In this document: piece after piece, positions 1 to 22,583 of the stretch
How positions within the stretch are numbered: position 1 is the first letter of the stretch
How the letters are laid out: the number at the start of each line of letters is the position of its first letter
Assembly (NCBI GenBank): GCA_016188145.1
Contig: JACPIJ010000068.1
Span: forward strand, 1 to 42,278
DNA length: 42,278 nt
Origin: Candidatus Woesearchaeota archaeon
Lineage (GTDB): Archaea > Nanobdellota > Nanobdellia > Woesearchaeales > UBA10216
Direction of reading: 5' to 3'
The notes under the pieces: generated by a model
The model's input: the letters and a program-made list of their open reading frames with translations, nothing else
Told to the model about the DNA's origin: nothing
The model's database searches: none
Made by a program: the position numbers and the translations under genes

Positions 1-2
1 AG

Positions 3-233
3 AAAAGGTACACCAAGAGGGTTGTCAGTGAGGAAGTAAACACGCTGCTTGAAGGCAGGTTCGGGGTTTTGGATGATTCGATAGGGACAGGCTCTTCAAC
101 TCAGAGGGGCAAGCCAGAATCAGCGCTGCCGAAGTTACTGCCTGATGAACTGGTGAAAAGCCTTGACCCAAAGAACCCGGCCTATTCAATGCTTATGGAG
201 GCAGTGAAAAGCTACAATGGGGAGAGGCGGTGA
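3..233 (+). CDS. 3' end of an upstream gene (partial; hypothetical protein)
   Basis: Frame 3 is open from the window edge to TGA at 231-233 (...KSLDPKNPAYSMLMEAVKSYNGERR*). It ends 21 nt before the next ORF. No motif recognised. Confidence 0.4.
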   Translation, partial: KRYTKRVVSEEVNTLLEGRFGVLDDSIGTGSSTQRGKPESALPKLLPDELVKSLDPKNPAYSMLMEAVKSYNGERR

Positions 234-254
234 GCCAAGATTACACTTGACAGC

Positions 255-1109
255 TTGGCACGGGAAGCCGTGCAGTACTTGGACAAGGGCATTCTGCCTT
301 TGAAGGTAGAGGCGATAGACGCATTCCTTGGCAGAGCTGAAAGAACACACCGCAGTGCTACACGATTTAACCCAACTTTGCCATTTACATACCATGACGA
401 GCATGGAGTTAGCCATAAAGTTCAGCCAGAGTACGGATACGGCTGCAATCAATTCCCTGACGAAAGGGTAAGGCAGCTGTACGGGGCTGACGTAAGCTGG
501 GTGCCTGTTGTCGGACTGAATCCTAAAGAGAGGCACATAGCTCAACTTCCCATAACTGTTTATGGCACATGCCTGTACATAATGGATCATGATCATTGGA
601 ACAACCTTGCGCCTTTATCAATAATGTTCACGCCACGTAATCATCCACTTAGTAGTAAGTTCATTTCACACGAAAGAGTTCACGGCGTGAGAGACAGACC
701 TTTCCTCTCAGATGATGGTCTTCTTCACACCGAATTTTATGCGTATGCGGCATGTGGCAATGTTGCGAGCATACTTTTTGGCGCTGATGCCCTTGGACAC
801 CAGCTTAACCTAAACCCAGGCATTTTGACTTTAGGGGCACAAATCATGTCGCAAAGCCTCCGAAGTGTGCTGGCCTATTTTGATTTCAAAAAAACGCTGA
901 AAAATGCCGAAATGGCGCTGAGTGAAGAATTTGGCACCCGAGGAGCGCGGTACGTTATTGGAAGGGCGTCTTTTGGGGAAGCAAAGGAGATTGCAGGATG
1001 CAAAAACAGCAGGGGACTGGAAGAGCTGCTGCAGAATAAGGCAGGCGATGGGGCAGGCGATGGTTTACGATGGGAGCTTCTCCAACAAAAATTGGAGGCG
1101 GTGGACTGA
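255..1109 (+). CDS. Hypothetical protein with an HExxH motif (HERVH); first complete gene of the cassette
   Basis: 284-aa ORF from a TTG start. No early in-frame ATG exists, so the start is uncertain. HERVH is encoded at 669-683. The stop lies 1 nt before the next ATG. Confidence 0.55.
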   Translation: MAREAVQYLDKGILPLKVEAIDAFLGRAERTHRSATRFNPTLPFTYHDEHGVSHKVQPEYGYGCNQFPDERVRQLYGADVSWVPVVGLNPKERHIAQLPITVYGTCLYIMDHDHWNNLAPLSIMFTPRNHPLSSKFISHERVHGVRDRPFLSDDGLLHTEFYAYAACGNVASILFGADALGHQLNLNPGILTLGAQIMSQSLRSVLAYFDFKKTLKNAEMALSEEFGTRGARYVIGRASFGEAKEIAGCKNSRGLEELLQNKAGDGAGDGLRWELLQQKLEAVD

Positions 1110-1110
1110 A

Positions 1111-1923
1111 ATGGTTAATGAACATAATGGGGGCGGCGGTTATGATCCCTCTTTTGGCGGCGGTGTTGGCCCGGGCGGTATTCCTTTCGGTGATGATTCT
1201 AGGGATTCAGGCGGCAGCGATGATCCTGGCGGCGATGGCGGTCAGGGCGACTATGATCCCGGACAGCATAGTCAGGATAGCGGTGGCTGGCCTAGCTGGC
1301 TTGGCTGGTGGCCAGCCTTCCTAAGTTTACTTGTCACCGAAGATAAAGGCAATCAGGGAAAAAGGGAAGGAGCATCGAGCAGCGGCGGTCCGAGGCGAAG
1401 AGGATTTTACAGCGGCCACATGAGTTACGGCAGAGTTCATGTTGATTCTGGCGATTTGGAATACGCGATTGACGAGTCTTACAGAGGTGTCGGCGCAGTT
1501 ACGCTGAAGACGATTTCAAACGGCATCACTCTGGCCTTGTCAGATGACGGGAAAGTGTATGTGAGCGGATTCATAAGTCGTGAGCCTGAAATCAGGGCAG
1601 GCCGCCTGTTCATTGATGGCTTACGGGGAATCCTGAAATTGCCTAAAAACAAGGAAAGCCTCACGCTTGAAGCCAATCTCACCTCTGGAGATGTCCGTGG
1701 CGCTATCGCTCACAGCGGCAGAATCGCTACAGTATCTGGCGGCATTAATCTGGAGTTGTATGCGCCACTTGCACTTGAGGCAAGTGTTGTCAATGGCGAA
1801 GTTTCTGTTATAGGAATGATGTCTGAAGGCAGGGGCGTCTACAGCCCGCCTAATGCGCAACCGAAGGGAAAACTTTCTCTTCAAACTACATCTGGCGACA
1901 TTAACGTGAGGTATATGCTATAA
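1111..1923 (+). CDS. Gly/Asp-rich protein with a C-terminal DUF4097-like (putative adhesin) beta-solenoid domain
   Basis: ATG at 1111 directly follows the previous stop at 1107-1109, so the track ORF starting at 922 is an overlapping extension. The C-terminus has repeated xSGDVx / SGGINL / NGEVSV / TSGDINV strands. It is clearly paralogous to the C-terminus of the J-domain protein (3545-4801). Confidence 0.65.
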   Translation: MVNEHNGGGGYDPSFGGGVGPGGIPFGDDSRDSGGSDDPGGDGGQGDYDPGQHSQDSGGWPSWLGWWPAFLSLLVTEDKGNQGKREGASSSGGPRRRGFYSGHMSYGRVHVDSGDLEYAIDESYRGVGAVTLKTISNGITLALSDDGKVYVSGFISREPEIRAGRLFIDGLRGILKLPKNKESLTLEANLTSGDVRGAIAHSGRIATVSGGINLELYAPLALEASVVNGEVSVIGMMSEGRGVYSPPNAQPKGKLSLQTTSGDINVRYML

Positions 1924-1934
1924 GGTGAAATGAA

Positions 1935-3539
1935 ATGAACATTTTAAGCAAGCTGCCGATTGGAATGGGAAATCAAAGGTACGAGCCGAACTTTCACGTG
2001 GAAGTGAGAGGACTTGACAGGATTGTTGAGAAGGCTGTTTCAGGCTTAGAAGCCGGCTCAGAAGGTGAGTACAGTCTGGGAAGGGCAGCAATGGCCCAGT
2101 CTCCAGTGCAGGAAGTCGGGGTAGTGCTGAAGCCCTCAAAGAGTGGGGTTTACGGTTATGCGGTTAATGCTTCAAAGAAGCTTATGACGCAAGTTACGGG
2201 CTTTGTTCCCTCTTACACCTTGGAAGCAGTTATAGACGTTGATGGCAGCAGGCCATACCTACATGCCGACCTGAAAGCGTTAGAAGAAGCAGGCTTCCGT
2301 GTTGTTGGCAACAGAAAAAGTGACGCTCTCCTTCACATTTTCAATGACAAACTTTTTGGGGGAGGTAGGCATGCGGAATATTCTGCAAAACCGCAAAGTG
2401 CAACGCTCACATATTCAGCCAAGGCAGAAAACCATACCACAGAAGAAGTAGGCAGGGCGATAACAGGCTTTGCCCAACTGCTTGAGCTCATAGTCAATGG
2501 CGCCTACAAGGCAGCAGGAAAAAGCCCCCCTGACACAACGCTCAACTTCGAGCTTGGCGAAAAAATCAGCAGGGTAAAGGGGCAGAAAATCCAGCCAGTC
2601 AGCAGCCAAAATGGCGGGCACAGCGATGCATACGCTAAGAAGGCTGACGGAGCTGACGAAGATAACTTTACCCAGGCTTTGCAGCCAGCAAAAAGCGATG
2701 TAACGTTCAAAGACATTGGCGGCTACCGAAATGTAAAGGGGCAGCTTAGTGATTTCCTTCTTGCAATAAAAAACCCGCAGGAAGCCAGGAGGCAAGGCTA
2801 CACGCCATCAAAAGGCATTCTGCTGCATGGACCGCCCGGGACAGGCAAAACGTTGTTTGGCAAAGCGCTGGCGGGTGAGTTAGGAACAGAGTTCATCTAC
2901 TACAACGCCTCTGACATGCTGCAGAAGTATGTGGGGGACTCTCCAAAGGCGCTGAAAGCAGCTTTTGAGGGAGCGCAGCAGATAGCCGACAAGACAAAAA
3001 AACCCGTCATCCTGTTTATTGACGAGATTGACTCGGCATTCCCGCAAAGGGGAACTGCCCATGACGTTAAGATCGATCTAGTCAACCTCTTCAACCAATA
3101 TATGGACGGCTTTGAAAGCAGGAGGATTCCGAACGTGTGGGTAGTCGGAGCAACCAACAGGCTACGTGAAATGGACGAAAGCGCAACCCGCGCAGGGCGA
3201 TTCGAAAAGATTGAAGTTCCGCTTCCTGACCTGGAAGCAAGGACAGCCATATTCCAAGTTACGAAGGACTCCCTTCAAAGGGAAGCAGGAACGCAGCTGT
3301 TTGAGCCAGCGATAGACTACGCTACGCTGGCAAAGGCTGCTGAAAAATTCTCAGGGGCAGACATTGCTGATGTAATGAGGGAAGCAAGGCAAAAAGCATT
3401 CAGGCAGGCGGCAGTTTCCGGCCAAAAGAATGTTGTGCCTACAACAGCTGCACAGCTTGAAGAAGAAATAGCAGCTTACAAGCAGCAACAGAAGCGTGAC
3501 GGCAAAAGCAAAAATACACTTGGCTTCAAAAAGGACTGA
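1935..3539 (+). CDS. Classic-clade AAA ATPase (single Cdc48/FtsH/Vps4-like AAA module) with a unique ~270-aa N-terminal domain
   Basis: Walker A is GPPGTGKT (2829-2852) and Walker B is ILFIDEIDS. The second region of homology is VVGATNRLREMDESATRAGRFEKIEV. A GGTGA Shine-Dalgarno-like sequence sits upstream of the ATG. Confidence 0.9.
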   Translation: MNILSKLPIGMGNQRYEPNFHVEVRGLDRIVEKAVSGLEAGSEGEYSLGRAAMAQSPVQEVGVVLKPSKSGVYGYAVNASKKLMTQVTGFVPSYTLEAVIDVDGSRPYLHADLKALEEAGFRVVGNRKSDALLHIFNDKLFGGGRHAEYSAKPQSATLTYSAKAENHTTEEVGRAITGFAQLLELIVNGAYKAAGKSPPDTTLNFELGEKISRVKGQKIQPVSSQNGGHSDAYAKKADGADEDNFTQALQPAKSDVTFKDIGGYRNVKGQLSDFLLAIKNPQEARRQGYTPSKGILLHGPPGTGKTLFGKALAGELGTEFIYYNASDMLQKYVGDSPKALKAAFEGAQQIADKTKKPVILFIDEIDSAFPQRGTAHDVKIDLVNLFNQYMDGFESRRIPNVWVVGATNRLREMDESATRAGRFEKIEVPLPDLEARTAIFQVTKDSLQREAGTQLFEPAIDYATLAKAAEKFSGADIADVMREARQKAFRQAAVSGQKNVVPTTAAQLEEEIAAYKQQQKRDGKSKNTLGFKKD

Positions 3540-3544
3540 TAAAA

Positions 3545-4801
3545 ATGGCATTTGACCCAAGGCAGCAAAGGAAATTTGAAGAGCTTCAGGCAAGACTCCG
3601 GAAGAGCTACGGCAGCGGGAGTCTGTACGATGCGCTTGGGGTTAAGCCTGGCGCAACTGAGGATGAAATCACAAAGCGGTATAGGAAAATGGCGTTTGAA
3701 TTTCATCCTGACCGCAACAAGGCTCCAGATGCCGAGCAGAGGTTCAAGGACCTGCAGGCAATTAATAATATCTTATCAAAACCGGAAGAAAGGGCAAGCT
3801 ACGATGCGTGGCTTGCAACGGCAGGAGGGGCAGGAGCTGGCTCAACCGGGCAGCCTGGTGCCAAGCAATGGTCGCAGCATCACAGTAATCAGGGGGCTGG
3901 CGCTTTTGGAAGCAGCAGCCACAGCACTGGCAGCAGCGATAGCAGAAGCGGCGTTTATGTCAACGGCGTTGAGTTGCCGAAAGAGTTTGCCGGAAGACGG
4001 ACGGTTATCATAAACGGCGGGCGTCAGGTAATAATCTCCTATGGCGGAACAAAATATGCGGAGGTCAACGGCGGTGTTCATGTCCATGACATGCCTCCTG
4101 GCGGAAAGATAAAATTTGACGGCTTGACCATAGAATACCAAAGCTCTGGAAGCGGCAGCCAGCCTCATGTGAGGGTTTCCAAAGGCGGGATTTTCAGCAG
4201 GCAGGAGATTGTAACGAGCGGTGGTGGCGTAATCAACATAGGTAATGGCGGTTCTGTTGTTATGGGAGGAGTCCACAGTTCAGGAAGCTCTTGGCATGGT
4301 GGCGGCGGATTTTATGGAAGCGGCCTTGAAACAGAGATAAACCGGGCATACGATAACATCAGCGCAGTTTCTGTGACGCATGGCGATGGCGACATACGAT
4401 TCGGATTTTCCAAAGATAGAAGGGTGTATGTCAAAGGAAATGTTTCAGAGAAACCTCTGGTTTCTGATGGAAAGCTTGCAGTTGCCGGCCTGGATGGCAT
4501 CCTGGAACTTCTGCTGCCGAAAGAAAGGGAGCTAAACTTGTCAGTTCTTACGGGGGATGGCGCGTTACGCGGCGACATCGCTCACCAAGGCAGAATAGCA
4601 ACAGGCGATGGCCCAATCAGCCTTAACCTGCACTCGCCGCTTGAGCTGCAGCTGAGAACAGGATATGGCCTTGTTAACGTTTCAAACATGATAAGCAGGG
4701 GAGGAGGAATCTACTCGCCGCCAAACCAGAAAAGCACGGGAAAGCTTGAAGTGAAGACAGGAGACGGCAGCATAAGCATCAACTACGTTGGAAGGGCTTA
4801 G
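3545..4801 (+). CDS. J-domain (DnaJ N-terminal domain) protein with a Gly/Ser-rich linker and a DUF4097-like beta-solenoid C-terminus
   Basis: The N-terminus reads LYDALGVKPGATEDEITKRYRKMAFEFHPDRNKAPDAEQRFKDLQAINNILSKPEERASYD, with HPD encoded at 3704-3712. There is no Zn-finger or DnaJ C-terminal domain. The C-terminus is paralogous to gene 1111-1923. Confidence 0.9.
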   Translation: MAFDPRQQRKFEELQARLRKSYGSGSLYDALGVKPGATEDEITKRYRKMAFEFHPDRNKAPDAEQRFKDLQAINNILSKPEERASYDAWLATAGGAGAGSTGQPGAKQWSQHHSNQGAGAFGSSSHSTGSSDSRSGVYVNGVELPKEFAGRRTVIINGGRQVIISYGGTKYAEVNGGVHVHDMPPGGKIKFDGLTIEYQSSGSGSQPHVRVSKGGIFSRQEIVTSGGGVINIGNGGSVVMGGVHSSGSSWHGGGGFYGSGLETEINRAYDNISAVSVTHGDGDIRFGFSKDRRVYVKGNVSEKPLVSDGKLAVAGLDGILELLLPKERELNLSVLTGDGALRGDIAHQGRIATGDGPISLNLHSPLELQLRTGYGLVNVSNMISRGGGIYSPPNQKSTGKLEVKTGDGSISINYVGRA

Positions 4802-4807
4802 ATAAAA

Positions 4808-6694
4808 ATGGGACAGGCAACCGCTGAAAACGCTGAAAAAACAAATGAGAAAACAGAAGCATCACCGCACATACTGGAAGAGCTGGTAAAGGCAGCCCCA
4901 GGAGCGGGCTTTGAAGAGAAAGAGCAGGCTTTGCATTCTACGCTGCTGCTGGCTTTTTACCGCGCAGCACAGGCTGTTGTTTCGAAAGAAGTAATAATTC
5001 CCATGTTCTTTGGAGTTAGTTACAATAATAATACCAGGCAGATTAAGTTCGTAAATCATGGGGGAACTGCGCCAGTGCAGAGCAAGGGCAGAACTGACGT
5101 AAACGGGCTTGACCTGATTATTTCTGCAACTTTAAGAGGTGGGATGCCCCTGCTTCTTGAAGGCGACACAGGAACAGGAAAGACGCTCATTACAGAGAAG
5201 TACTTGGCAACCATTCTTGAAAGGGAAAACTATGTCACGATGACCCTGAGCCAGAACCAGTTTGCAAACAACCCGCTGCAGCCGTTCACTAAGAAAGACC
5301 CTAACGACGTTACAAAGACGCATATTGACAAGGATGCGCTGCGAAGAATAGCTGCTCTGTTTGTTGACGAGCTCAACAGAGGGCAAACGCAAACCCTTCT
5401 CCAGTTGGCTTACGGAAGAATAAACGTTGGCGGGGAGTTTGACGAAGTGGCCATACCAGTTCCAGAACTAACCCCTAATGGCGTTGACTACTCCGAAAAA
5501 GGCAGGGTAAAGAAGCTTTTGTTCATAGGCGCCCAGAACCCTTCGCAGCAGAAGGACGCGACATTCACAGGCACTATGCAGCTCGACCCAGCCCTTTCAA
5601 ACAGGCTGCTGACTGTTGAGTTTCCGATTTTGACAAAAAGCGCTGGCGCCTCTATAATGGTGGTTGAAAGCGGCAACGGCTTGCATGACAAGTTTTTGGA
5701 AAGCGTTGCGCAGTATCTGGAAAAGTCTTTTGGCGCCAAGGTTGACAGGGACAGGCTCAAGGAGCAATGGCTGTCAACTTATGCATATGTTGCCGACCCA
5801 AAGAGGACTGACAAGGCTTTCTTGCGCTCCTCATTGGAGCTTGCTGACATGCTGGCAGTTGCCCTCGCAGGCGATGTAGCAAGCACATACGAGCAAGAAC
5901 AGAAAATGATTGCAAACTGGGACGCTTACATATCACACATATCACCGACCCTCAGGACAAATTTCTCGCTTGGCCAAACAAAGATAGACGCCACAGACGA
6001 GGCCGTGCAGCGCTTGGAAGAGGTGGTTGGAACGTTTGAAAAAACCGCAATGCCAAGGGACTTGATAAAGATAAAGAATGTAGCTGATATATTCTCAACC
6101 ATCAGAGGCATCAAAACAGCCTTCGCGGCACAAAACCCTGCACAAACTTACGTAAAAAAGTCTGGCTACGTGACTGTTGAAGACATTGCAGCTGCCTCAA
6201 CGCTTGTTGCCAAGAGCAAGCAGTTCAAGGCGACGGCAGACCCCATAATCATAGTGAACTCAATCCTTACAGAATATACTGCGCTGGCGGAAGAAGCTAC
6301 CGCAGGGATCACGGGCAGGCAGATACCGTTTGACAGCAATGACTACGAAGCAGGAATACTGAACTACACCTTCGGACACGCTTGGGAATCAGCAAGTAAC
6401 CATAAGGGCCTGGTGCAAAAACTAAGTGAATACGCTGTTATGCTGAAAAGCTTGCAAACAGGCACAGGAGCTAACGAGCTCAGGCGCTTAATAGTCGCAA
6501 GAACAGTTGGGGATTTGGCAACATTGAGCGGTTTCCTGATTGACAACGCAGCAGATGTTGACTCATTGCTTGGCAAGGCAAAAGGCGATGTCGGCGCAGC
6601 CTTTGCAGGACTAAAGCAAATGTACGAAGAACAGCGCGAAAACCCGCTGATGCCAGAAATTTACAAGCACAGGCTTGAGAAAATGCTTTCATGA
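4808..6694 (+). CDS. MoxR-class AAA+ ATPase (AAA_3/AAA_5-like)
   Basis: Walker A is GDTGTGKT (5162-5185). Walker B and sensor read FVDELNRGQTQTLLQLAYGR. The downstream segment IGAQNPSQQ...GTMQLDPALSNRLL matches the MoxR pattern DEiNR...AtqNP...LpeAqlDRF. Confidence 0.85.
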   Translation: MGQATAENAEKTNEKTEASPHILEELVKAAPGAGFEEKEQALHSTLLLAFYRAAQAVVSKEVIIPMFFGVSYNNNTRQIKFVNHGGTAPVQSKGRTDVNGLDLIISATLRGGMPLLLEGDTGTGKTLITEKYLATILERENYVTMTLSQNQFANNPLQPFTKKDPNDVTKTHIDKDALRRIAALFVDELNRGQTQTLLQLAYGRINVGGEFDEVAIPVPELTPNGVDYSEKGRVKKLLFIGAQNPSQQKDATFTGTMQLDPALSNRLLTVEFPILTKSAGASIMVVESGNGLHDKFLESVAQYLEKSFGAKVDRDRLKEQWLSTYAYVADPKRTDKAFLRSSLELADMLAVALAGDVASTYEQEQKMIANWDAYISHISPTLRTNFSLGQTKIDATDEAVQRLEEVVGTFEKTAMPRDLIKIKNVADIFSTIRGIKTAFAAQNPAQTYVKKSGYVTVEDIAAASTLVAKSKQFKATADPIIIVNSILTEYTALAEEATAGITGRQIPFDSNDYEAGILNYTFGHAWESASNHKGLVQKLSEYAVMLKSLQTGTGANELRRLIVARTVGDLATLSGFLIDNAADVDSLLGKAKGDVGAAFAGLKQMYEEQRENPLMPEIYKHRLEKMLS

Positions 6695-7755
6695 TGGCGA
6701 ACAATATGGAACCTGGAAAATCTGGTGGCAGAAAAGATGAGGACGTTGGCACAGGAGGGCCAAGATTAGTTAGAGTTAGCAGAACAATAAGGCCGGATAA
6801 GAAAGGCTGGGAAAAAATACTGGGGAAAACGCCTGGCGAAGCCCATGCTCAAGGTGGAAATGATGCCGGGCAAGAAGGCCAGCCCAACGCTCCAGCGCAA
6901 GAACAGCCCTCCCCTTCCGAAGCATCGCCTTCAACTGCGCCAGCTGCGAATTTGGCAAACTTAACTAGGTCCAATTACCCCATCCAGTTCAGAACTGACG
7001 TAATAGAGCACCTTTACGAAATGCTGAAGGGCAAAGGGCTTCCGAACCTGCTAAGCATTCAAGCACTCTCGCAGCCTTTCCAGAACGTTGAAGAGCCGCT
7101 TGCGTATGCGCATGCAACGCTTCTTGAAAACATGTTCGGCCCAGAAGGCTTTGACATCACTAACTCAGCAGGAAAGTTCCCAACAGACGAGTATAGGTGC
7201 TTTTCCTCCCTTCAGGCTAACCCTGTCAGTTTAGCGAAGGTCAGAAATTACGTAACAGCCCTGTTAGGGCATGAAGCTCTTATGGAACTATCAGCCTCGC
7301 AAATAGCAGAAGCCGGGCTGGAATCAATGATTGAAATAGGAAGCCTGCCAAAATACTTTCCCAACTCGCGCGGCCTAAAATTCGCAGAAATGTTCAAAAG
7401 CCGTGTCTCGTGCAAAGAGCCCTTCAACTCAGCATACTTCATCGTAATGGAGATGCAGCCGCCAAGCACAAGGCTGCTAGTTGCCAAAGCACTTGAAGCC
7501 GCTTATGCAGACGGAAGCCTGGCAGCTCCTGCGCTGCAAACTTTTCCAACAGACACTTTTGATTACTTTTTTTTCTGCTTAAAGTTAACTCCAAGGGTGG
7601 AAAGAAGCCGAGCTTATCTTAAGATTCCTAACCAGGCCCTGCAAAGGGAAGCGCAAAAGCTTGGCGTCAATGATACGGCACCTCATGCTGCTGCTTATGA
7701 AAAAGCCTGGGGCAGCCTGGTTGAGAGGCTGCATGAAAAATTGATAGGTCTGTAA
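6691..7755 (+). CDS. Hypothetical protein, paralog A (P/Q/A-rich N-terminus, conserved C-terminal domain)
   Basis: Its ATG overlaps the MoxR stop (ATGA at 6691-6694). It is paralogous to 7769-8785, with shared blocks EEPxAYAHAxLL and IVMxMQPPSTRLLVAKAxEA. Confidence 0.7.
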   Translation: MMANNMEPGKSGGRKDEDVGTGGPRLVRVSRTIRPDKKGWEKILGKTPGEAHAQGGNDAGQEGQPNAPAQEQPSPSEASPSTAPAANLANLTRSNYPIQFRTDVIEHLYEMLKGKGLPNLLSIQALSQPFQNVEEPLAYAHATLLENMFGPEGFDITNSAGKFPTDEYRCFSSLQANPVSLAKVRNYVTALLGHEALMELSASQIAEAGLESMIEIGSLPKYFPNSRGLKFAEMFKSRVSCKEPFNSAYFIVMEMQPPSTRLLVAKALEAAYADGSLAAPALQTFPTDTFDYFFFCLKLTPRVERSRAYLKIPNQALQREAQKLGVNDTAPHAAAYEKAWGSLVERLHEKLIGL

Positions 7756-7768
7756 AGGAAAGGCGAGC

Positions 7769-8785
7769 ATGATGGCTGAGAGAACAATAAAACCGGACTG
7801 GGGAAAGGTGCTTGGGAAAGGTCCGCAACCTTTGAAAAAGCCGCAAGAGGCGGGGCAAGATGCTGGGCAGCAGGGGCAGCAGGCCCAAACTTTGCCAGCT
7901 ACGCATGAAGATGCAGTGACTGCTGCGGCTTCGGTGGCAACGGACTACCCGCTGCAATTAGTGATTGACGTGGCCTCGCACTTGTATAGCTTGCTGAAGG
8001 GTAAAAGCCTTCCAGCCCCACAAGCGGTTCAGGACATTGCGCAAGTTATCAAAACTTTTGAAGAGCCCACGGCTTACGCGCACGCAATCCTGCTGGTTGA
8101 AAAGTTAGGGATAGAAAGCTTTACCATAAGCAACAGCGTAGTTAAACTGCCAAATGATTTGCAAGATTCACAGCGAAAGAAAAAACAAAAGACGCCTTTG
8201 CAGGACTATTTTAGGGTAGTTTCCGGGACATTTGCAAATTCAGTCACAGCTGAAAAAGCCCGAGTATACGTGGCTGCGCTGTTTGGGCCAGACGCCCTTA
8301 ATGCGCATCCGGCTAATTACCTGGCACAAGCCAGCTTAGAAACTAAACTTGCGCTGTCAAGCCTGCCACAACTCCTTCCCCACATGCCAGAAACAGGTTT
8401 TCTGCAAATGTTCCAAAAGCCTCTGCACTCAGGGCCTTTTAACTCCGAATACTACATTGTCATGGCGATGCAGCCGCCAAGCACAAGGCTGCTAGTTGCC
8501 AAAGCGATTGAAGCCACTTCCGGAAGCCAAAATTTACCAGCGTCCCCGCCCGAGATTTTCCCGAATGACAAATTTGGCACGGATTACCTGCCTGTTGCAG
8601 AGAATAGACATTTTGACAATGAGTTCCATTCAAAAGTTTCATTAGACGCCCTAAAAAGTGAAGGGAAAAAGCTTGGTATAAAGGACACGAACAAACCTGT
8701 AGAAAGCTACCGTGCTGCGTGGGAAAAGTTACACTACCAATTTCAGACAGCACCTTACAGCTCACCAGTAGACATTCAAGGGTGA
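7769..8785 (+). CDS. Hypothetical protein, paralog B
   Basis: It starts 13 nt after the previous stop and is preceded by AGGAAAGG. It is paralogous to 6691-7755. Confidence 0.7.
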   Translation: MMAERTIKPDWGKVLGKGPQPLKKPQEAGQDAGQQGQQAQTLPATHEDAVTAAASVATDYPLQLVIDVASHLYSLLKGKSLPAPQAVQDIAQVIKTFEEPTAYAHAILLVEKLGIESFTISNSVVKLPNDLQDSQRKKKQKTPLQDYFRVVSGTFANSVTAEKARVYVAALFGPDALNAHPANYLAQASLETKLALSSLPQLLPHMPETGFLQMFQKPLHSGPFNSEYYIVMAMQPPSTRLLVAKAIEATSGSQNLPASPPEIFPNDKFGTDYLPVAENRHFDNEFHSKVSLDALKSEGKKLGIKDTNKPVESYRAAWEKLHYQFQTAPYSSPVDIQG

Positions 8786-8790
8786 AGCCG

Positions 8791-11025
8791 ATGCTTATAC
8801 CTGAATCCTTAGATAAAGCGGTTGCTGCTTGGGAACAGCACCGCGATGCGCAGTTCCCGATTTTCTCAGACATAACAGTAGAGACAGAGCCGAAGAAGGG
8901 CAAGCTAGGGAAAAATCCTAGGCAGCAGGCGCTCTGGTCGTTTTCAACTAACAACAAAAAGATACATGCCTACATCTTCAAGCCAGAGGACATTGAGATG
9001 ATTTTCAGGCAGGTTGTTGTGCCGCTATACGCAAAAGGAGCATACGGCAAGGACATGACTGCATTGCTCAAGGACCCCCAACATTTTGAGGCGTTTCTAG
9101 AGGCTATTGCGTTCCACAACAGCCTCTCCCTGCTAAACCACGAACTGCTCCACCCAGCGGGATGCCCAAACAGCAAGGAAGACGAGGAAAAGATTGACCT
9201 GGCGCTTTACGAAGGTGTAAAGGAGGCAATGCCGCAGCTCGGAGCAAAAGACCTCGTCCAAAAAGCAGGCAACGTAAGAAATTTTGTTTGGGACCACGTC
9301 GATGACCTGTTCCAGTACTACTTCATAACCACTGATACCCCTTACAGGAGAAACCTTGAGTCTGTGCTGGCAGCCAACAGCCACAGCGTAAACGGAACAG
9401 CAATTACCAAATTCCCAGAAGGCATAATTCCACTATTTGACGTTGTATCGGTCGCTTCTTTCAAAACAGCAGGTGCAACAGGCACAGTCCAGACGCCAAG
9501 CGCCCTTTACCCGCTTACAAGGATATTCTACGCTATGCTTTTCTGCGGCGACAGCGAGACCAGAAATGGAATATACGAGCATTTCATGCGAGCCATAAAA
9601 CAGTTCAGAGACCTCGACTACGCACAATTCACAGAGCAAAGGGCAAACAGCTTAATAAAAAAGGCGATGCTTGGCATGGTCTCGGAGCTTGATAGCTCTG
9701 AGCTAAGCGCGAAGGGCATAAGCTATTCGCAGTTTGAGGCCGCTGTTGATGGGATGTTCAAAAACATAGCAAAACCGCAGTACAGCTTACCACACCGTGA
9801 AGTTCTTGAAGGCCTGGCTGCAGTGCTGATGGACAAAGAAACAAGGTACAAAGCCGTAAAGGGCTTCATAAAGCCGCTAGCGCCTTACATTTCAATCCAG
9901 CATTCAGAGGACAGGCACGAGCACGACGACGAGGAAGAAGGAGGTGGAGGAGGGGCAAGCTCTGCCCTTGAAAACCTGCTTGGCCAGCTTCCAAAGGACG
10001 AGGCAAACCAGCTTCTCCAAGACATCGCAAACTCCGGCCAGCCGGCAACGGCAAAAGATGCAAAGCTACAGCTTCAAGCCATTGACGAGCATTACAAGCG
10101 CAACGCCAAAGAAGTAGCATTGAGAAGCCCGAAGCCTGAGGTAACAACAATAGACCTTGGAAAGGTGAAAGAGTGGCAGCCTGTGAGGTCAGAAACAGTA
10201 ACCGAGCAGGAGCTGCGCGACAATTACAACATTGATGCCCTAATAGAGTTTGCAGCAACTACAGGATTACCAGTGCTTCAAAAGCTTGACGAAAACAACT
10301 GGAAAATCAGCTACTTCGAAGAAAAAGAGTTACCGCTTACCTCGTACACTTTTCAAAGCACAGGAATAGAGCTGCCGCGGAATGTTGTCTTCGTTGTTGA
10401 CACGTCAACCAGCATGCTTGAAGGCGCCAGGCTATCGGGCGCATCACTGCAAAGCCAAATAGCAGCCCTTACTTCATCAAGGAATGGAAACCGCTTTGTC
10501 GGAACAGGCAACAAATACGATGCCCTGATGAACGTTGTCTACGGTCTACTGAAGACAATGGACAAGGCAAGCAAGGACTATGGTGCTCCTGTAGAGCTTG
10601 TTACTGTAAATTACTCAGGAACTACTGTGGCTAATGGACCTGTAAGCGTACAGGACGCACTATCACAGGCAGCAAGCCCTGTAAAGACCAACCTGTTAAG
10701 CCCGCAGCTTGGAGTAACAACGCTTGACGCACTAGTACTACAAAGCGTGGAAAAGCAGCTCCAGCCCGGAAAAACGGTCTGGCTGGTATTCTGCGACGGA
10801 GACTTGCGAGGAGTAACTACGCCAGTGTTCCAGCAATTTGCAAAACTTGCTGGGAAGAAGGACAACAGCATCGTCTACTTCCAGCTTTACGACCAGGGAG
10901 GGGCTTTTGGAGGCTTTATGAGCCAACTAGCAGCAGCCAGGCCGAACGTGTCCTATAACCACATAACAGACATGAACCAGGTAACAAAAGCTGCAATGAG
11001 CGTGCTGGTAAAATACGCCAAATGA
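8791..11025 (+). CDS. HExxH putative metallopeptidase-like domain + C-terminal VWA domain with MIDAS motif (DUF2201-like MoxR partner)
   Basis: ATG at 8791 lies 5 nt after the previous stop, so the track start at 8719 (GTG) overlaps gene H. NHELLHP is encoded at 9139-9153. The VWA MIDAS motif is VVFVVDTSTSM (DxSxS at 10399-10413). An acidic/Gly linker (HDDEEEGGGGG) separates the two domains. Confidence 0.8.
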   Translation: MLIPESLDKAVAAWEQHRDAQFPIFSDITVETEPKKGKLGKNPRQQALWSFSTNNKKIHAYIFKPEDIEMIFRQVVVPLYAKGAYGKDMTALLKDPQHFEAFLEAIAFHNSLSLLNHELLHPAGCPNSKEDEEKIDLALYEGVKEAMPQLGAKDLVQKAGNVRNFVWDHVDDLFQYYFITTDTPYRRNLESVLAANSHSVNGTAITKFPEGIIPLFDVVSVASFKTAGATGTVQTPSALYPLTRIFYAMLFCGDSETRNGIYEHFMRAIKQFRDLDYAQFTEQRANSLIKKAMLGMVSELDSSELSAKGISYSQFEAAVDGMFKNIAKPQYSLPHREVLEGLAAVLMDKETRYKAVKGFIKPLAPYISIQHSEDRHEHDDEEEGGGGGASSALENLLGQLPKDEANQLLQDIANSGQPATAKDAKLQLQAIDEHYKRNAKEVALRSPKPEVTTIDLGKVKEWQPVRSETVTEQELRDNYNIDALIEFAATTGLPVLQKLDENNWKISYFEEKELPLTSYTFQSTGIELPRNVVFVVDTSTSMLEGARLSGASLQSQIAALTSSRNGNRFVGTGNKYDALMNVVYGLLKTMDKASKDYGAPVELVTVNYSGTTVANGPVSVQDALSQAASPVKTNLLSPQLGVTTLDALVLQSVEKQLQPGKTVWLVFCDGDLRGVTTPVFQQFAKLAGKKDNSIVYFQLYDQGGAFGGFMSQLAAARPNVSYNHITDMNQVTKAAMSVLVKYAK

Positions 11026-11034
11026 GTGATAAAA

Positions 11035-12174
11035 ATGGCATTTGACCAGCTTACCGAACACCTCGGCAATGAACTCTCTGACCTTGAAGGTAAAGTCTCC
11101 GCAGCAGTCATGGAGCGCCTCGAAGCTTACGACGCCATTACTTCTTCGGAATTCTACCTGCCCGTAATCGACTATTTCTTCCTTGCACACCAGCAAGGAG
11201 GCAAAAGCCACATTGACCTGGCGAGAGAGGTTGGAATTGGAAAGAGCACAGTGAGGAAAATATTTCTTCTTTACGGCTTACCGATAGTTGGCAGGGCAGA
11301 AGCCACCAAAAGAAAACTGGCCGACCCCGATTACCAAAAGAGAGTTGCACAGACCTCAAGGGAAACAATGTACCGGCTGAAGCAGGACCCTGAATTCCGA
11401 AAGAAGCAAGCCGCCGCTAGTAGCGCAGTTTTTCATAATCTTTGGGACAATCCTGAGTTTGCCCAGGAAGTTGCAGAAAGGGGAAGGAAGCAATTTAACG
11501 AAAGGTGGAAGGATGCCGGATTCAGGCAGCGGCAACATGACGGTCTGGAAAAGGAGCTTGAAAAAAGGTGGCACGACCCGGAAGCCAACCCTGCCTTCAG
11601 AGAAAGGTTTGCAGAAACCCATAAAAAATCAACAAGGCAGCTATGGGAAAATCCGCAGTTTAGAAAGAAGATTGCCGAGGCATCAAGGGATGCAAGATAC
11701 CGCCCTGAAGGCCTGAATTCAAGAACGCACATTCCTTCAATTCATGGCTACAGGCGCGACATAGGATTTTACGCACAATCAATGTGGGAGGCAAACCTTG
11801 CAAGGGCATTCATGACCAGCCATGCCAACTTTTCAAGAAGGCAAACATTCCAGTTGAGGGTTCCCGAAGAGCACAGGCAAGCAATTGGCTCAGAAAAAAC
11901 AGATCTCACTGTTGACTTCGCGGTACGTGACCCCAAAACCCACAAGGTGACATTGTATGAGGTAATGGCGCACCCTCTCGAAGCACCTGTAGGCAGGATA
12001 AAACTCGAGCTGCTGCGGCAGCAGTTCCCGCAATTCAGGGTTGTGGCTGTCGATCCAAAATATTACGAAACGTTAAGAAACGAATTTGCCGCAAAAATAA
12101 GCCGTTCGGGATGGCTTTGCGGCTGGGAAACAACAAAGGACAACCTGAGAACAAACCCTGAAAAATACGCGTGA
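11035..12174 (+). CDS. HTH + six tandem ~21-aa repeats + C-terminal PD-(D/E)xK-like (TnsA-N/restriction-endonuclease-fold-like) domain
   Basis: The ATG lies 9 nt after the VWA gene stop. The HTH reads IDLAREVGIGKSTVRKIF. The repeats have consensus [DN]P[EQ]F[RA]xK...LW and span roughly nt 11310-11700. The C-terminus carries SMWEAN ... TVDFAV ... LYEVM, an E / D / E-x-(K replaced by M) pattern. Confidence 0.7.
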   Translation: MAFDQLTEHLGNELSDLEGKVSAAVMERLEAYDAITSSEFYLPVIDYFFLAHQQGGKSHIDLAREVGIGKSTVRKIFLLYGLPIVGRAEATKRKLADPDYQKRVAQTSRETMYRLKQDPEFRKKQAAASSAVFHNLWDNPEFAQEVAERGRKQFNERWKDAGFRQRQHDGLEKELEKRWHDPEANPAFRERFAETHKKSTRQLWENPQFRKKIAEASRDARYRPEGLNSRTHIPSIHGYRRDIGFYAQSMWEANLARAFMTSHANFSRRQTFQLRVPEEHRQAIGSEKTDLTVDFAVRDPKTHKVTLYEVMAHPLEAPVGRIKLELLRQQFPQFRVVAVDPKYYETLRNEFAAKISRSGWLCGWETTKDNLRTNPEKYA

Positions 12175-12313: not shown

Positions 12314-12796
12314 ATGGACGTTGAAATTGACATCAGCGAAAACCTCAAAAGGATCGATAAGGACAGCTTTTTGGGAGTTTGCAGCAAGGATAGCGCTTAT
12401 AGCAAAAGCGTCCAATTGCCTTCTTCTGTCAAGAAACGAATCAAAAAGTACCCAAAATTAAGGGCGCAAATTCATGTCGCTCTAATCTATACTCTTATCA
12501 AGGGCGATTTGCCAGCTTACACCTCAATAAAAATCTGTCCAGACGTGAGCAGAAATGCCATACATAACGGCTTGCTCAGCCTCTTCAAGAATAATCCGCA
12601 TTATCGCAAACTTCAAGCAAATGGTAAAATCAAAATAAGTCCAGTTGGTCATGACGAATGTGCTGTTCACGATTATGTCACTATGTTAAAAGCAAAAAAG
12701 TTGGAGCCGACATTTCGAATGACCCTTGAAGAGTTATATGAAATTTTAAATACGTTCAGGCATAGATGTCCTATTGAAACAACAGAAACAGAATAA
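12314..12796 (+). CDS. Hypothetical protein
   Basis: ATG at 12314 lies about 25 nt downstream of TATA-like ATATTTATAAACC, suggesting a leaderless or short-leader start. The longer track ORF starts upstream of that TATA. No motif recognised. The gene looks AT-richer than the cassette. Confidence 0.5.
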   Translation: MDVEIDISENLKRIDKDSFLGVCSKDSAYSKSVQLPSSVKKRIKKYPKLRAQIHVALIYTLIKGDLPAYTSIKICPDVSRNAIHNGLLSLFKNNPHYRKLQANGKIKISPVGHDECAVHDYVTMLKAKKLEPTFRMTLEELYEILNTFRHRCPIETTETE

Positions 12797-13111: not shown

Positions 13112-13483
13112 ATGAAGGTGAATGGAAAAATGGAACAGCCTGAAGGGCAGCAGATTAACATTGAAGTGCAGAACGGCACAGATTTCTTTGCGGACCAGGT
13201 AAGCGTGAGCCACAACCCGCTCAGGTTCATACTTGATTTCACGAGGACAACGCCAAGGATTGACGGCAGCACGACAGGGCAGCCGAGGCTTGTCATGAGC
13301 CACAATGTCGTAATGATAGACCCTTACCTCGCTTTGGAGTTTGTCAACGTCCTCAAGGACAACATTGCAAAATACGAGAAGCGCCATGGCAAGATAGCAA
13401 GGCCTGGCGCATTGAAAAAGCTTGACGAGGAAGCAAGGAAGGCAGGCAAGTCGGACGCCAAGAAGCAGGAATATTTTGGATAA
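13112..13483 (+). CDS. DUF3467-family protein
   Basis: INIEV...FADQVSVSHNPLRFILDFTR...LKDNIAKYEKRHG resembles the DUF3467 signature as I recall it. An alternative start is ATG 13130, which lies behind an AGGTGA. Confidence 0.7.
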   Translation: MKVNGKMEQPEGQQINIEVQNGTDFFADQVSVSHNPLRFILDFTRTTPRIDGSTTGQPRLVMSHNVVMIDPYLALEFVNVLKDNIAKYEKRHGKIARPGALKKLDEEARKAGKSDAKKQEYFG

Positions 13484-13550
13484 TGTGACCTTTTTGCGAA
13501 ACCACGTCGTGCAAGCACGACGGGTCCCATCGCCATAGGCGATGTGGAAA

Positions 13551-13565
13551 GGTCAATCAAAAAAC
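13551..13565 (+). promoter_or_regulatory. Promoter-like motif GGTCAATCAAAAAAC upstream of the thermosome gene
   Basis: It ends 25 nt before ATG 13590. The same motif lies at 15709-15722, 21 nt before ATG 15743. Variants occur at 18423-18436, 29308-29322, 29341-29355, 34322-34336 and 34355-34368. Confidence 0.55.
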
Positions 13566-13589
13566 GACGATTTCAGGAGGGATGTGAGG

Positions 13590-15224
13590 ATGGCACAGCA
13601 GATACAGCCGATATTTATTTTGCCGGAAGGCAGCCAGAGGACAACCGGAAGGAACGCGCAGCGAGCCAACATAATGGCCGCAAAAGCGGTTTCCGAGACA
13701 GTGAGGACTACTCTTGGGCCTAAGGGAATGGACAAGATGCTCGTCGACAACCTTGGAGACATTGTCATAACAAATGATGGAGTAACGATTCTTGAGGAGA
13801 TGAATGTTGAGCATCCTGCTGCAAAGATGATCGTTGAAGTAGCAAAGACGCAGGAAGACGAGATAGGTGATGGCACAACAACAGCGGTAGTTATAGCAGG
13901 AGAATTGCTGAAAAAGGCAGAGGACCTGCTTGACCAGGACGTGCACCCCACGGTAGTTGTGAGAGGCTACAGGATGGCCGCTGAAAAAGCGCTTGAGGTT
14001 CTCAACAAGATTGCCGAGCCAATCGCTGAAAAGGACACGGCAATGCTTGAGATGATTGCCATGACAGCAATGACTGGAAAGGGCGCTGAGAAGGCAAAGG
14101 AGCAGCTCTCCAAACTGGCTGTGAAGGCAGTCAAGGACGTTGCCGACCTGAAGGATGGCAAGCTCTCTGTAAACAAGGACAACATAAAGATAGAAAAAAA
14201 GGTTGGCGGAGCGGTTGAGGACTCTGAGCTTGTTGAAGGCATAATCCTTGACAAGGAAAAGGTCCATCCGGGAATGGCTGACGTTGTCAGGAATGCCAGG
14301 GTTGCACTGATTGACGTTGCTGTTGAAGTCAAGAGCACAGAGACCGAAGCCAAGATACAGCTCACGGACCCGAACCAGCTGCAGGGCTTCATCGACATGG
14401 AAGAGAAAATCCTCAGGGACAAGGTTGAAAAGATAGCAAAGTCCGGAGCCAATGTGGTGTTCTGCCAGAAAGGCATAGACGACCTTGCCCAGCACTTCAT
14501 GGCAAAGAAAGGAATGTATGCTGCCAGAAGGGTTAGCAAGAGCGACATGGAAAAGCTTGCAAGGGCAACAGGAGCAAAGATAGTCACCAGCCTTGAAGAC
14601 CTGTCTGCTTCCGACCTTGGAGCCTCAGGCGTTGTTGAGGCAAAGAAGGTTGGGGATGAAGACATGACCTTTGTCAAGGAATGCAAGAATGCCAAAGCGG
14701 TTACGCTCCTGATAAGGGGCGGGACAGCGCACGTTGTTGACGAGGTCAAAAGGGCGGTTGAGGACGCAATTGGCGACGTTGCAAGCGCGCTAGCAAGCGG
14801 AAAAGTGGTTGCCGGAGCAGGCGCAACCGAAATAGAGCTCGCACTGCAGCTCAGAAGGTATGCGGGATCGCTATCAGGCAGGGAACAATTAGCGGTAAAC
14901 TCATTTGCAGAGGCAATAGAGATAATCCCAAAAACACTTGCGGAGAACTCGGGGCTTGACCCCATAGACGTCCTTACAGAGCTGAAGAGCCAGCATGACA
15001 AGGGAAGGAAGTGGGCAGGCATAGACGTCTTCACAGGCAAAATAATGGATGCCTGGAAGGAAGGCGTTCTTGAGCCATTAAAGGTAAAGACCCAGGCCAT
15101 AAGTTCAGCAAGCGAAGTTGCAGGAATGATATTAAGAATAGATGATGTCATTGCCTCTGGAAAATCAGAGTCCAGAGGCCCACCAAGCATGCCCGGGCCA
15201 GAGGGAATGGGCGGTGACTATTAG
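13590..15224 (+). CDS. ths: Thermosome subunit (group II chaperonin)
   Basis: The N-terminus is [24 protein letters not shown]. Signature segments [19 protein letters not shown] and GDGTTTAVV are present, and the C-terminus has a GGM-like tail. GGAGG lies upstream of ATG 13590, so the track start at 13542 is an upstream extension. Confidence 0.95.
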
Positions 15225-18767: not shown

Positions 18768-19183
18768 TAGCCACTTTATAGCCAAAGCCAACAAGTGCTG
18801 TTGTTGAGGTTAAAAAATAAGAAAAAAGCCGGGTTCCGAAACCGGCAAACGCGCTTGCTTTATTTGCAAGCAACCATCCAGGTCTTTGTATTCTTAATAA
18901 GTAGACTACTTAATATACTTTCGCCTGAAAATTTTTCGATTTTTGGGCTTATGAGCACTGGACACTGGACAGATGCCCGGCGAGGGTATTTAAACTACTT
19001 CTTCTAAAACGCTCGGAGGACCGCAGAGCTGCCAAATTATGCTTTTCCCCTGCTTCGCATGGTCGCTAATCGCTAAAAGCAATTAGGCAGCTCCGCTCAG
19101 TGTCCTCCTCGCCCTAAACGTAAGATTTCTCAGCCAAGCGTGAGAAATCTCAACAATTGATTGAGGTCTCAGAGGTAAAGAAA

Positions 19184-19939
19184 ATGAGAAGATTGCCAGA
19201 AATGCTTCAGCAAGAAATCGAGTTAGAAATAGCCGAAGGCACTTCTTTAAATGCAATATCGAATTCTTACAATATTGGTAAATCAACGTTGTATTATTAC
19301 TATAAGAAAATTAAAGGGAAGAAATTTGTTCCTCCGAATGTAACTCCTGTTCTTTCGGAAGAAACTGGAGAAATCCTAGGGATTTTTGCAGGCGATGGAA
19401 GCCAATATTTTGAGGCGAGGAACTACCATTATGAAATTAATGTGCATTTTGGACATAAAAAGTTAGCCTATGCCAATTATGTTAAAGCACTATTTGAAGG
19501 GTTTTTTAAGAAGAAGTTTAGGTTACAAAGAGAATCGCATGAATTAAGACTCAGAACGTATTCTAAAGAAATTTTTTATTTCTTCAATAATTTTATATCT
19601 TATAATCCTAAAATAAAACATTCGACTGTTAAGCTAATTTCAACGTCAGTACCTGCTAATTTTAAGATTGGTTTCCTACGAGGTTTATTTGATACTGACG
19701 GATCTATACTCTACATTAGAAAACAAAAAAGAGTACGAATAGCTTACTGTACAACATCTTTAGAACTCATGAGACAAGTGAAATCCATAATGGACGAATT
19801 CGGTTTAAAATACGGGGTTTACACAGACCACCCAAAAAGACATAAGGACATTTATCGTATGACTTTGTGGAAAGAAAGCAACAACATATTTTTAAATACG
19901 ATAGAACCTTTCAAAAAACGTTTATTATTGGGCCGGTAA
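19184..19939 (+). CDS. Free-standing double-motif LAGLIDADG homing-endonuclease-like protein with an N-terminal HTH
   Basis: The two LAGLIDADG-type motifs are ILGIFAGDGSQYF and GFLRGLFDTDGSI. The HTH reads ISNSYNIGKSTLYYYY. ATG 19184 lies behind GAGGT. The gene is markedly AT-rich by eye. Confidence 0.85.
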   Translation: MRRLPEMLQQEIELEIAEGTSLNAISNSYNIGKSTLYYYYKKIKGKKFVPPNVTPVLSEETGEILGIFAGDGSQYFEARNYHYEINVHFGHKKLAYANYVKALFEGFFKKKFRLQRESHELRLRTYSKEIFYFFNNFISYNPKIKHSTVKLISTSVPANFKIGFLRGLFDTDGSILYIRKQKRVRIAYCTTSLELMRQVKSIMDEFGLKYGVYTDHPKRHKDIYRMTLWKESNNIFLNTIEPFKKRLLLGR

Positions 19940-22478: not shown

Positions 22479-22583
22479 TTGAGGCGCAGAGGCCTGTTTT
22501 TAAGCCTTTCCCGTTTGGGATGGAGCGGATACGTGGTTGTTGTAAATATTTATAAAAAAGCTGTTGCTGCCAACTCGGTTAAG

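Follow-up and report, generated by a model that had tools for sequence, protein, structure and literature searches.

An unnamed MoxR-like/VWA gene pair of DPANN archaea and its variable partner genes in a Woesearchaeota contig

Pairs of a MoxR-type AAA+ ATPase and a protein with a VWA domain are known as chaperone and co-chaperone (PMC7159879). In Acidianus two-tailed virus (ATV), the MoxR ATPase p618 and the VWA protein p892 have extra interacting proteins; p618 works with these further proteins, and its ATPase activity is stimulated by p387 (PMC4124505). Here, a MoxR-like ATPase gene, F (positions 4808–6694), and a VWA gene, I (8791–11025), were analyzed on the plus strand of contig JACPIJ010000068.1 of a Candidatus Woesearchaeota archaeon. 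The entire contig of 42,278 bp is the stretch of DNA under study and is referred to as the window. F and I lie in a run of co-directional genes, designated A′ to J, which a sequence-only reading had proposed as a single multi-ATPase remodeling or defense system. The comparison with homologs favors a different arrangement, which we hold to be fairly probable. The run would be a composite one in a DPANN (Woesearchaeota-type) chromosome, with F and I as its deep core, an ATP-driven remodeling pair acting on a client protein, and with the intervening genes G and H encoding fast-evolving partners.

The F and I pair and its family

The product of F contains 628 residues and consists of an N-terminal β subdomain, an AAA+ core (approximately 5105–5677) and a helical C-terminal region of approximately 330 residues. 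In 12 family members, GDTGTGKT (Walker A), FVDELNRG (Walker B), AQNP (sensor-1) and NRLL (Arg motif) show little or no variation. A borderline score of 24.3 bits was obtained for Pfam AAA_5 (cut-off 22) and one of 25.3 bits for AAA_7 (cut-off 25.8), with no match to AAA_3. Searches of PDB sequences with F gave nothing past the P-loop, and PADLOC gave two marginal P-loop matches, AbiO and Nhi, at E values of about 0.005–0.01. The AlphaFold2 (AF2) model of F has a predicted local distance difference test (pLDDT) score of 79 and a predicted template modeling (pTM) score of 0.81. It contains extra β-hairpins after β2 (the helix-2 insert) and before sensor-1, and its best PDB neighbors in Foldseek are MoxR (2r44, E 8.5e-5), RavA, BchI/ChlI and NorQ. 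The conserved motifs and the nearest folds, those of MoxR, RavA and NorQ, agree with the MoxR-type assignment made in the sequence-only reading.

The product of I contains 744 residues and consists of a helical N-domain, an acidic/Gly-rich linker, a β-rich segment and a VWA domain (approximately 10378–11022). An HELLH motif is encoded at 9139–9153 (residue 117), and a metal-ion-dependent adhesion site (MIDAS) with the sequence DTSTS is encoded at 10399–10413 (residue 537). In an alignment of seven orthologs, residues H117, E118, H121, P122, C125 and P126 are invariant and define the motif HExxHPxxCP. The MIDAS residues D537, S539, T612 and D669 are also invariant in this alignment, and the fifth position is S or T. 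The Pfam score of I for VWA_2 is sub-threshold (13.8 bits); the full-length ortholog from locus L008 passes PF00092 VWA at 32.8 bits. The AF2 model of I has a pLDDT of 67.5, and the best 50 Foldseek matches listed for it are almost all VWA domains, including those of ITIH1, the Rea1/MDN1 MIDAS and NorD, most with a probability of 0.97–1.0. Both motifs that had been read from the sequence of I, HExxH and a VWA domain with a DxSxS MIDAS, are conserved in the family, and the VWA fold was recovered. Sequence and profile searches of the PDB with I found nothing. The libraries scanned put no name to the pair: Pfam, NCBIfam, PHROGs and PADLOC assign I to no family and give F weak matches of the P-loop/AAA_5 type.

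The F profile was searched exhaustively against 1.84 billion representative proteins and yielded 62 proteins (clusters) at E ≤ 1e-30. Beyond these 62 lie giant multi-AAA_5 proteins, one of which (P0110) was scanned against Pfam and is midasin-like. A word-indexed search of 5.8 billion proteins returned four relatives of I and 11 of F. The same four proteins were obtained when the I alignment was used in a second search of the 5.8 billion proteins, in which low-complexity words probably filled the candidate list. Further loci were obtained by profile searches of genome contigs and metagenomes with the I alignment; searches of genome contigs with the F alignment and of metagenomes with the G/H alignment gave no matches. 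In a sister subfamily, F′ is shorter and I′ has no HExxH; its member P0070 passes AAA_5 at 35 bits.

All named members of the F/I family are from DPANN archaea, namely Woesearchaeota, Nanoarchaeota/Nanoarchaeia and Aenigmatarchaeota. Two metagenome-assembled genomes (MAGs) that bear F and I carry other labels, Methanosarcinales (L017) and Deltaproteobacteria (L018). Judging by the rest of the family, these two contigs are probably mis-binned DPANN sequence. No description of the family was found in the literature on MoxR-vWA proteins in archaea and DPANN or in that on Toastrack-DnaJ proteins.

Gene contexts were read in approximately 20 distinct loci. The loci holding both genes are the window, L001, L005, L008–L011, L013–L019, L020–L030, L042 and L043. 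In every one of them F and I are on the same strand within approximately 2 kb and either adjoin or are separated by at most two genes. The order in most members is pyruvate kinase (PK), Ham1, ThyA, a QueC-like gene (Q), X, Y, F, I and PfkB, followed by NUDIX and nicotinamide adenine dinucleotide (NAD) genes. X and Y have few invariant residues and evolve faster than F and I. In the Aenigmatarchaeota locus, F is followed by a gene of 125 codons, by I and then by other unknowns. A neighborhood check of the homologs of F, I, E and D had been proposed in the sequence-only reading; F and I are together in the approximately 20 loci, but E and D are not with them in the more distant ones. In the approximately 20 other loci, B, C, D, E and J are all missing from the neighborhood of F/I, apart from a lone J-domain gene. 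From sequence and gene context, F and I appear to be an unnamed, DPANN-restricted MoxR-like/VWA family with interchangeable partner genes, and this family is the new element at the locus.

Several further features of these loci were recorded. In L005, L009, L010, L011, L014, L016, L019, L021, L022, L024 and L027, the genes form a string whose ends abut tightly, with F/I at its tail (for example, L009 5403–15052). The string starts with pyruvate kinase, Ham1 (ITPase), thymidylate synthase and a QueC-like PP-loop protein, and PfkB is often followed by NUDIX, NAD-synthesis or nucleoside-hydrolase genes. X has a short motif in common with the QueC-like protein, and the gene at the X position in L008 starts with a VWA-like DVSGSM. 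A Nanoarchaeota genome of the main clade holds the lone J-domain gene, which encodes 109 residues, approximately 2.4 kb downstream of I (L009 16519–16848), with apparent duplicate loci in L016 and L027 (L027 14597–14926).

The nucleotide-metabolism context bears on the possibility that F/I is a maturation or activase factor, one that inserts a cofactor or releases an inhibitor in the manner of NorQD, CbbQO, CoxDE and CobST. The client would be an enzyme of nucleotide salvage, and the window clade would have swapped its client or adaptor for G/H. In the main clade, such a role would suit the position of the pair within the series from PK, Ham1, ThyA and the QueC-like gene through X, Y, F, I and PfkB to the NUDIX and NAD genes, where the ends of the genes overlap or abut. 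It would also suit the match of F to the CobS-like PHROG 249 (‘porphyrin biosynthesis’; E 1.9e-6 over approximately 290 residues) and the structural proximity of BchI/ChlI and NorQ to F and of NorD to I. However, hardly any residues of X and Y are invariant, so that they do not resemble enzymes, and no CobN, RuBisCO, NOR or CODH genes were seen in the loci examined. The window clade has a different context, without Q, X or Y near F/I, and a gene order kept among related DPANN genomes may be inherited synteny rather than function. We regard this role as doubtful. A more specific version, a CbbQO-like RuBisCO activase suggested by the nucleotide-salvage RuBisCO of DPANN archaea, was set aside since no RuBisCO gene was seen in the loci examined, and it is retained only within the broader enzyme-maturation proposal.

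G and H and the proposed mechanism

Two genes lie between F and I on the plus strand. The start codon of G (6691–7755) overlaps the stop codon of F in an ATGA sequence, and G is followed by its paralog H (7769–8785). The two proteins are 37% identical and have no match to any Pfam-type family or PDB entry, as anticipated when they were first noted as paralogous unknowns. G consists of a conserved N-terminal peptide (RTIxPD..W..iLG), a disordered linker rich in Q, P and A, and a domain of approximately 250 residues. Across genomes the peptide reads (E/K)RTI(R/K/Q)P..W..(I/V/A)LG (window 6691–8785, L001 5979–7970, L044 2158–2658), and the globular domain diverges faster than the peptide. G/H-type genes follow F only in the window clade, which consists of the window, the sister genome L001 with its Logan copies, and L044. 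Remote homology of G/H to X, Y, Q, the N-domain of I or the tail of F was considered and rejected, as hhalign and hmmsearch gave probabilities of no more than approximately 1%.

The mechanism proposed for the pair was drawn by analogy with RavA-ViaA, NorQ-NorD, CbbQ-CbbO, midasin and ATV p618/p892, from which we infer a physical complex of F and I and a role for the MIDAS in client binding. F would assemble into a hexameric ring on which I docks, and the MIDAS metal site of I would grip an acidic residue of the client protein. ATP hydrolysis by F would then remodel, assemble or mature the client. The HExxHPxxCP site in the N-domain of I may bind zinc, for the proteolytic processing of the client or in a structural or metal-handling capacity. 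G and H would most likely be clade-specific clients or adaptors, taking the same role as the unrelated X and Y in most other members. Because a conserved N-terminal peptide precedes a disordered linker, this peptide is a candidate docking motif. Since approximately 1,370 codons for F and I are kept in the tiny genomes of Woesearchaeota, Nanoarchaeota and Aenigmatarchaeota, the pair probably serves a process that is important to a host-dependent lifestyle.

The run around F and I

Positions 1–12174 of the window hold ten co-directional open reading frames (ORFs), A′ to J, on the plus strand. The spacers from A′ to J are, in order, 21, 1, 11, 5, 6, −4, 13, 5 and 9 nt. The ten same-strand ORFs and these spacers are exactly as the sequence-only reading had reported. 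It had placed all ten within 255–12174; nine complete ORFs are found there, and the tenth, A′, lies outside that span as a contig-cut tail just upstream of 255. GGAGG- or GGTGA-like sequences precede several of the start codons. The packing is looser past J, with 139 nt to gene K and then 315 nt to a DUF3467 gene. The tight co-directional packing of the ten genes supports their predicted co-transcription.

A′ is the 3′ end of an HTH_17 (excisionase-type helix-turn-helix) gene on the plus strand, with its stop codon at 231–233. When A′ was extended upstream with the Logan contig L032, a match to Pfam HTH_17 at 39 bits was obtained. B (255–1109, +) encodes 284 residues with one HExxH sequence (HERVH, residue 139). 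The HExxH reported for B is present as a motif only, since no family match was found in Pfam, NCBIfam, PHROGs or PADLOC. Two HExxH sequences were seen in the nine proteins, where approximately 0.13 would be expected by chance. The HERVH of B is otherwise known from near-identical sequences only. A kinship of B with the HExxH-bearing N-domain of I was rejected, as hhalign finds no relation.

C (1111–1923, +) has a Gly/Asp/Ser-rich N-terminus and a C-terminal Toastrack (DUF4097) domain. It scores 25.5 bits for PF13349 (cut-off 22.9), matching the C-terminal part of the model. E (3545–4801, +) contains a J-domain (approximately 3623–3805), a Gly/Ser linker and a Toastrack-like C-domain (approximately 4325–4789). 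Its score for DnaJ (PF00226) is 75.3 bits, with the HPD tripeptide at residue 54. C is paralogous to the C-terminus of E (residues 261–415), with 42% identity over 156 residues. The earlier description of the J-domain as an orphan, meaning one with no Hsp70 partner, concerns the entire genome; no DnaK gene was seen in the 42-kb contig. D (1935–3539, +) contains an N-domain of approximately 250 residues and one classic AAA module, with its core at approximately 2817–3212 and its lid extending to approximately 3407. It matches PF00004 AAA at 117 bits together with AAA_lid_3, and GPPGTGKT, ILFIDEID and a KYVG pore loop are present in the translation. The best PDB sequence matches of D are the D2 domains of VAT/Cdc48/p97 (E 1e-79), and the PAN/Cdc48 models of NCBIfam score 165 bits. 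The N-domain of D has no family match in the library scans. The library matches and the C–E identity bear out the earlier readings of C as DUF4097-like, of D as a classic AAA protein and of E as a J-domain protein with HPD and a second β-solenoid.

J (11035–12174, +) contains a weak helix-turn-helix (HTH), six tandem repeats of 21–25 residues ([DN]PxF...W; approximately 11323–11712) and a C-terminal domain. The six repeats described earlier stand, but the match to HTH_7 is 17.7 bits and falls below the cut-off of 23.8. The C-terminus has no Pfam, NCBIfam, PHROG or PDB sequence match. By eye it reads S..E ... D ... EVM, with Met where PD-(D/E)xK has Lys. J stands between I and K in six of six Logan contigs of the same organism. 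K (12314–12796, +) encodes 160 residues, has no family match in the library scans and is probably a neighbor outside the tight run.

The extent of the conserved unit was assessed with two close relatives. L001 is the Woesearchaeota MAG JACPBY010000003, a sister genome in which the same-order genes for thermosome, DUF3467 and GluRS are 90%, 82% and 80% identical to those of the window. The identity to L001 is 72% for F, 64% for I and 38% for E; G and H are only 30–40% identical to the two L001 paralogs, though the thermosomes are 90% identical. Of the run, L001 retains E to I and the HTH_17 gene. Its HTH_17 gene (2664–3275; 36% identity to A′, E 5e-20) lies between E and F and not upstream of B. 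B, D, J and K have no counterpart in L001, where other small genes stand in their places. L001 also has no separate C gene, and C matches only the C-terminus of L001 E. In the third relative, L044, F is 69% identical and lies between a gene upstream that has no relation to E and a G/H-like gene downstream. Accordingly, E is not directly upstream of F in either relative. A′, E, F, G, H and I are shared in the near clade, in which F-G/H(-I) is the constant arrangement, and F with I makes up the deep core; therefore, the ten-gene run is not a conserved unit. By this comparison B, D, J and K, together with C, are recent lineage-specific additions whose functional tie to F/I is putative; C partially duplicates E, and D is a Cdc48/PAN-like AAA of the unfoldase type. 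The products of A′ (HTH_17) and E (J-domain/Toastrack), which are common only to the window and its sister genome, may regulate F/I or feed clients to it.

The sequence-only reading had treated the ten genes as one multi-ATPase remodeling system. D, C/E and F/I would act on one substrate, with A′ and J as regulators or effectors. The spacers of −4 to 21 nt throughout the run, the two Toastrack genes C and E on either side of D, and the retention of A′, E, F, G, H and I in the sister genome are consistent with such a system. A proteostasis theme is also hinted at by the thermosome and DUF3467 genes nearby and by a Band_7 gene in L001. However, compact DPANN genomes commonly leave little DNA between genes of the same direction. 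L001 lacks B, D, J and K despite the thermosome identity, the HTH_17 gene has moved, E does not adjoin F in L001 or L044, and the approximately 20 other loci keep F and I without B, C, D, E or J, the lone J-domain gene excepted. One machine of ten genes is thus improbable.

Three points weigh against the reading of the run as a composite with an F/I core. The spacing, including that of B, C, D and E, fits a single operon, and these genes could be functionally coupled despite the evidence of two or three related genomes. The binding of F to I or to G/H would follow from analogy with other pairs. The N-domain of I around HExxH was modeled at a pLDDT of approximately 45–60 and has no fold or Pfam match, and because of this the zincin assignment of I, which comes from the motif, is putative. 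Each of the four alternatives (a ten-gene machine, defense, enzyme maturation and a virus-derived module) was nonetheless judged less likely than a composite run with an F/I remodeling core.

A role in defense had also been suggested, and MoxR-vWA cores are documented in conflict systems (PMC7159879). F/I would then be a threshold-setting chaperone core of the MoxR-vWA type, with G/H, E, D and J as sensors or effectors. This would be in keeping with the divergence of G/H and E, which is far faster than that of housekeeping genes, with the turnover of neighbors between close relatives and with the HTH and possible nuclease-like C-terminus of J seen on sequence inspection. D also gives generic matches to the IetA and TRIP13 models of PADLOC. 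On the other hand, PADLOC gives F, G, H, I, E and J nothing beyond noise. D reaches 85.8 bits for the NCBIfam IteA model, whose cut-off is 510, and its vicinity holds no IetS-like serine-protease gene. No VMAP, iSTAND, FtsH or β-propeller third component was found with Pfam, the sole trace being a sub-threshold VMAP-M8 match of 12.7 bits. The family is confined to DPANN archaea, most of its members are in the stable nucleotide-metabolism string (PK, Ham1, ThyA, QueC-like ... PfkB, NUDIX) and not in defense islands, housekeeping genes surround the run in the window, and no relative of I is present in IMG/VR. A known defense system was rejected, since PADLOC matches D alone through generic AAA similarity and the IteA score is far under its cut-off. 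The defense reading is without positive evidence and quite improbable, and the idea of a ten-gene ‘multi-ATPase defense system’, which was prone to over-interpretation, can be dropped.

A virus-derived origin, as an integrated or domesticated element related to the ATV p618/p892 tail-development chaperones, was also weighed. The best structural match of F in BFVD, a set of viral structures, is ATV ORF618 (p618; E 1e-5, 679 aligned columns), a MoxR ATPase of 618 residues that is paired with a VWA protein and extra partners. A′ is an excisionase-type HTH gene, and an IS200-like transposase gene and an LAGLIDADG ORF lie elsewhere in the window. However, the template modeling (TM) score to ORF618 is low (0.23), and tblastn searches gave no phage match past the P-loop for F and none for J. 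Viral genes, including those for integrase and capsid, are absent, the content of guanine and cytosine (GC) is even over the region, and IMG/VR is again empty for I. The flanks are syntenic housekeeping genes common to L001, and the chromosomal context is conserved in many DPANN genomes. A provirus or viral origin was therefore rejected as the principal explanation and is very improbable.

The remainder of the contig contains ordinary archaeal housekeeping genes, including those for thermosome, GluRS, SRP54, a DinB-type polymerase, cyclophilin and sugar-nucleotide enzymes. Hydrophobic segments of transmembrane grade are absent from all predicted proteins, and an Rfam scan of the window gave no RNA family. 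The DUF3467 gene (13112–13483) and the thermosome gene (13542–15224) lie downstream of the run at the distances given in the sequence-only reading. The DUF3467 gene is directly upstream of the thermosome gene, with a 58-nt spacer, in both genomes (window 13112–15224; L001 12556–14556), and its product may be a conserved chaperonin-associated small protein.

An LAGLIDADG endonuclease-like ORF (19157–19939) ends 9 nt before tRNA-Ala(GGC) at 19949–20028. The IS200/Y1-type transposase gene (28453–28950, −) is in a housekeeping stretch beside the cyclophilin gene (29398–29961, −). A GT4-family glycosyltransferase at 22479–23742 is split over two overlapping ORFs in different frames, of which 22479–23333 encodes the N-domain and the start of GT1 and 23263–23742 encodes the remaining GT1. 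A frameshift, a pseudogene or an error in the assembly would account for the split.

Comparison with described MoxR/VWA systems

The domain layout of I recalls two groups of proteins. Proteins with the Pfam domains DUF2201_N (a putative metallopeptidase) and DUF2201 (VWA-like) adjoin MoxR-like ATPases and share with I the idea of an HExxH N-domain followed by a VWA-like C-domain. In contrast to these, I has no match to either Pfam model even at E ≤ 1, is nearly twice as long and has the motif context HExxHPxxCP. CobT, like I, combines an N-domain with an acidic linker and a VWA domain, and the AAA+ module of F matches PHROG 249, which links it to CobS and to phage CobS-like genes. Unlike the CobS/CobT system, no CobN gene is present in the loci examined, and I has no match to CobT or CobT_C. 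To our knowledge, DPANN genomes are not expected to make cobalamin.

The ternary MoxR-vWA conflict systems (Kaur, Burroughs, Iyer and Aravind 2020; PMC7159879) resemble the present loci in having a MoxR and vWA core with variable neighbors. They differ in that F/I has no VMAP, iSTAND, FtsH, β-propeller or effector-domain fusions and is found in DPANN archaea in a housekeeping context.

ATV p618 and p892 form a pair in an archaeal context with sizes of 618 and 892 residues, compared with 628 for F and 744 for I, and, of the viral structures, p618 gave the best match to F, over its full length. The stimulation of p618 by p387 resembles a possible role of G/H. F/I has no detectable sequence similarity to the viral pair, however, and the TM-score is low as given above. 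F/I is also chromosomal and not virion-associated, in line with the lack of an I relative in IMG/VR. Midasin/Rea1 has six AAA_5 modules, an acidic linker and a C-terminal MIDAS. The next matches of the F profile outside the family are giant multi-AAA_5 proteins, the acidic/Gly-rich linker of I stands just before its MIDAS-bearing VWA domain, and the Rea1/MDN1 MIDAS is among the top fold matches of I. F/I differs in consisting of two polypeptides with a single AAA module, and neither a UBL-domain substrate nor a link to ribosome-biogenesis genes was found. A bolder proposal, which we consider unlikely, is that F/I is the DPANN counterpart of midasin or of ATV p618/p892. It would assemble or turn over a fast-evolving, lineage-specific structure containing G/H or X/Y, such as a host-attachment or cell-surface apparatus. 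In the window, E and C as a J-domain/Toastrack sensor and D as a Cdc48-like unfoldase would join it in a dedicated proteostasis circuit.

The reading of F/I as a remodeling pair is closest to RavA-ViaA, NorQ-NorD, CbbQ-CbbO and CoxD-CoxE. With these F/I shares adjacent genes for an AAA+ protein with a helix-2 insert and a pre-sensor-1 hairpin and for a protein that ends in a VWA domain with an intact MIDAS. MoxR (2r44), RavA and NorQ are nearest to F, NorD is among the neighbors of I, and the partner or client genes vary by lineage in the described pairs as well. F is approximately twice the size of MoxR, NorQ and CbbQ owing to its N-terminal β subdomain and its helical tail of approximately 330 residues, and it has a borderline AAA_5 match without AAA_3 or CbbQ_C. 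I differs in its HExxHPxxCP-bearing N-domain and matches none of the ViaA, NorD, CbbO or CoxE models, and the F/I family is restricted to DPANN archaea. F and I together with G/H or X/Y provide a concrete target for co-folding, pull-downs and structural work. To the described MoxR/VWA chaperone systems they would add an unnamed branch with its own HExxHPxxCP site and lineage-dependent partners.

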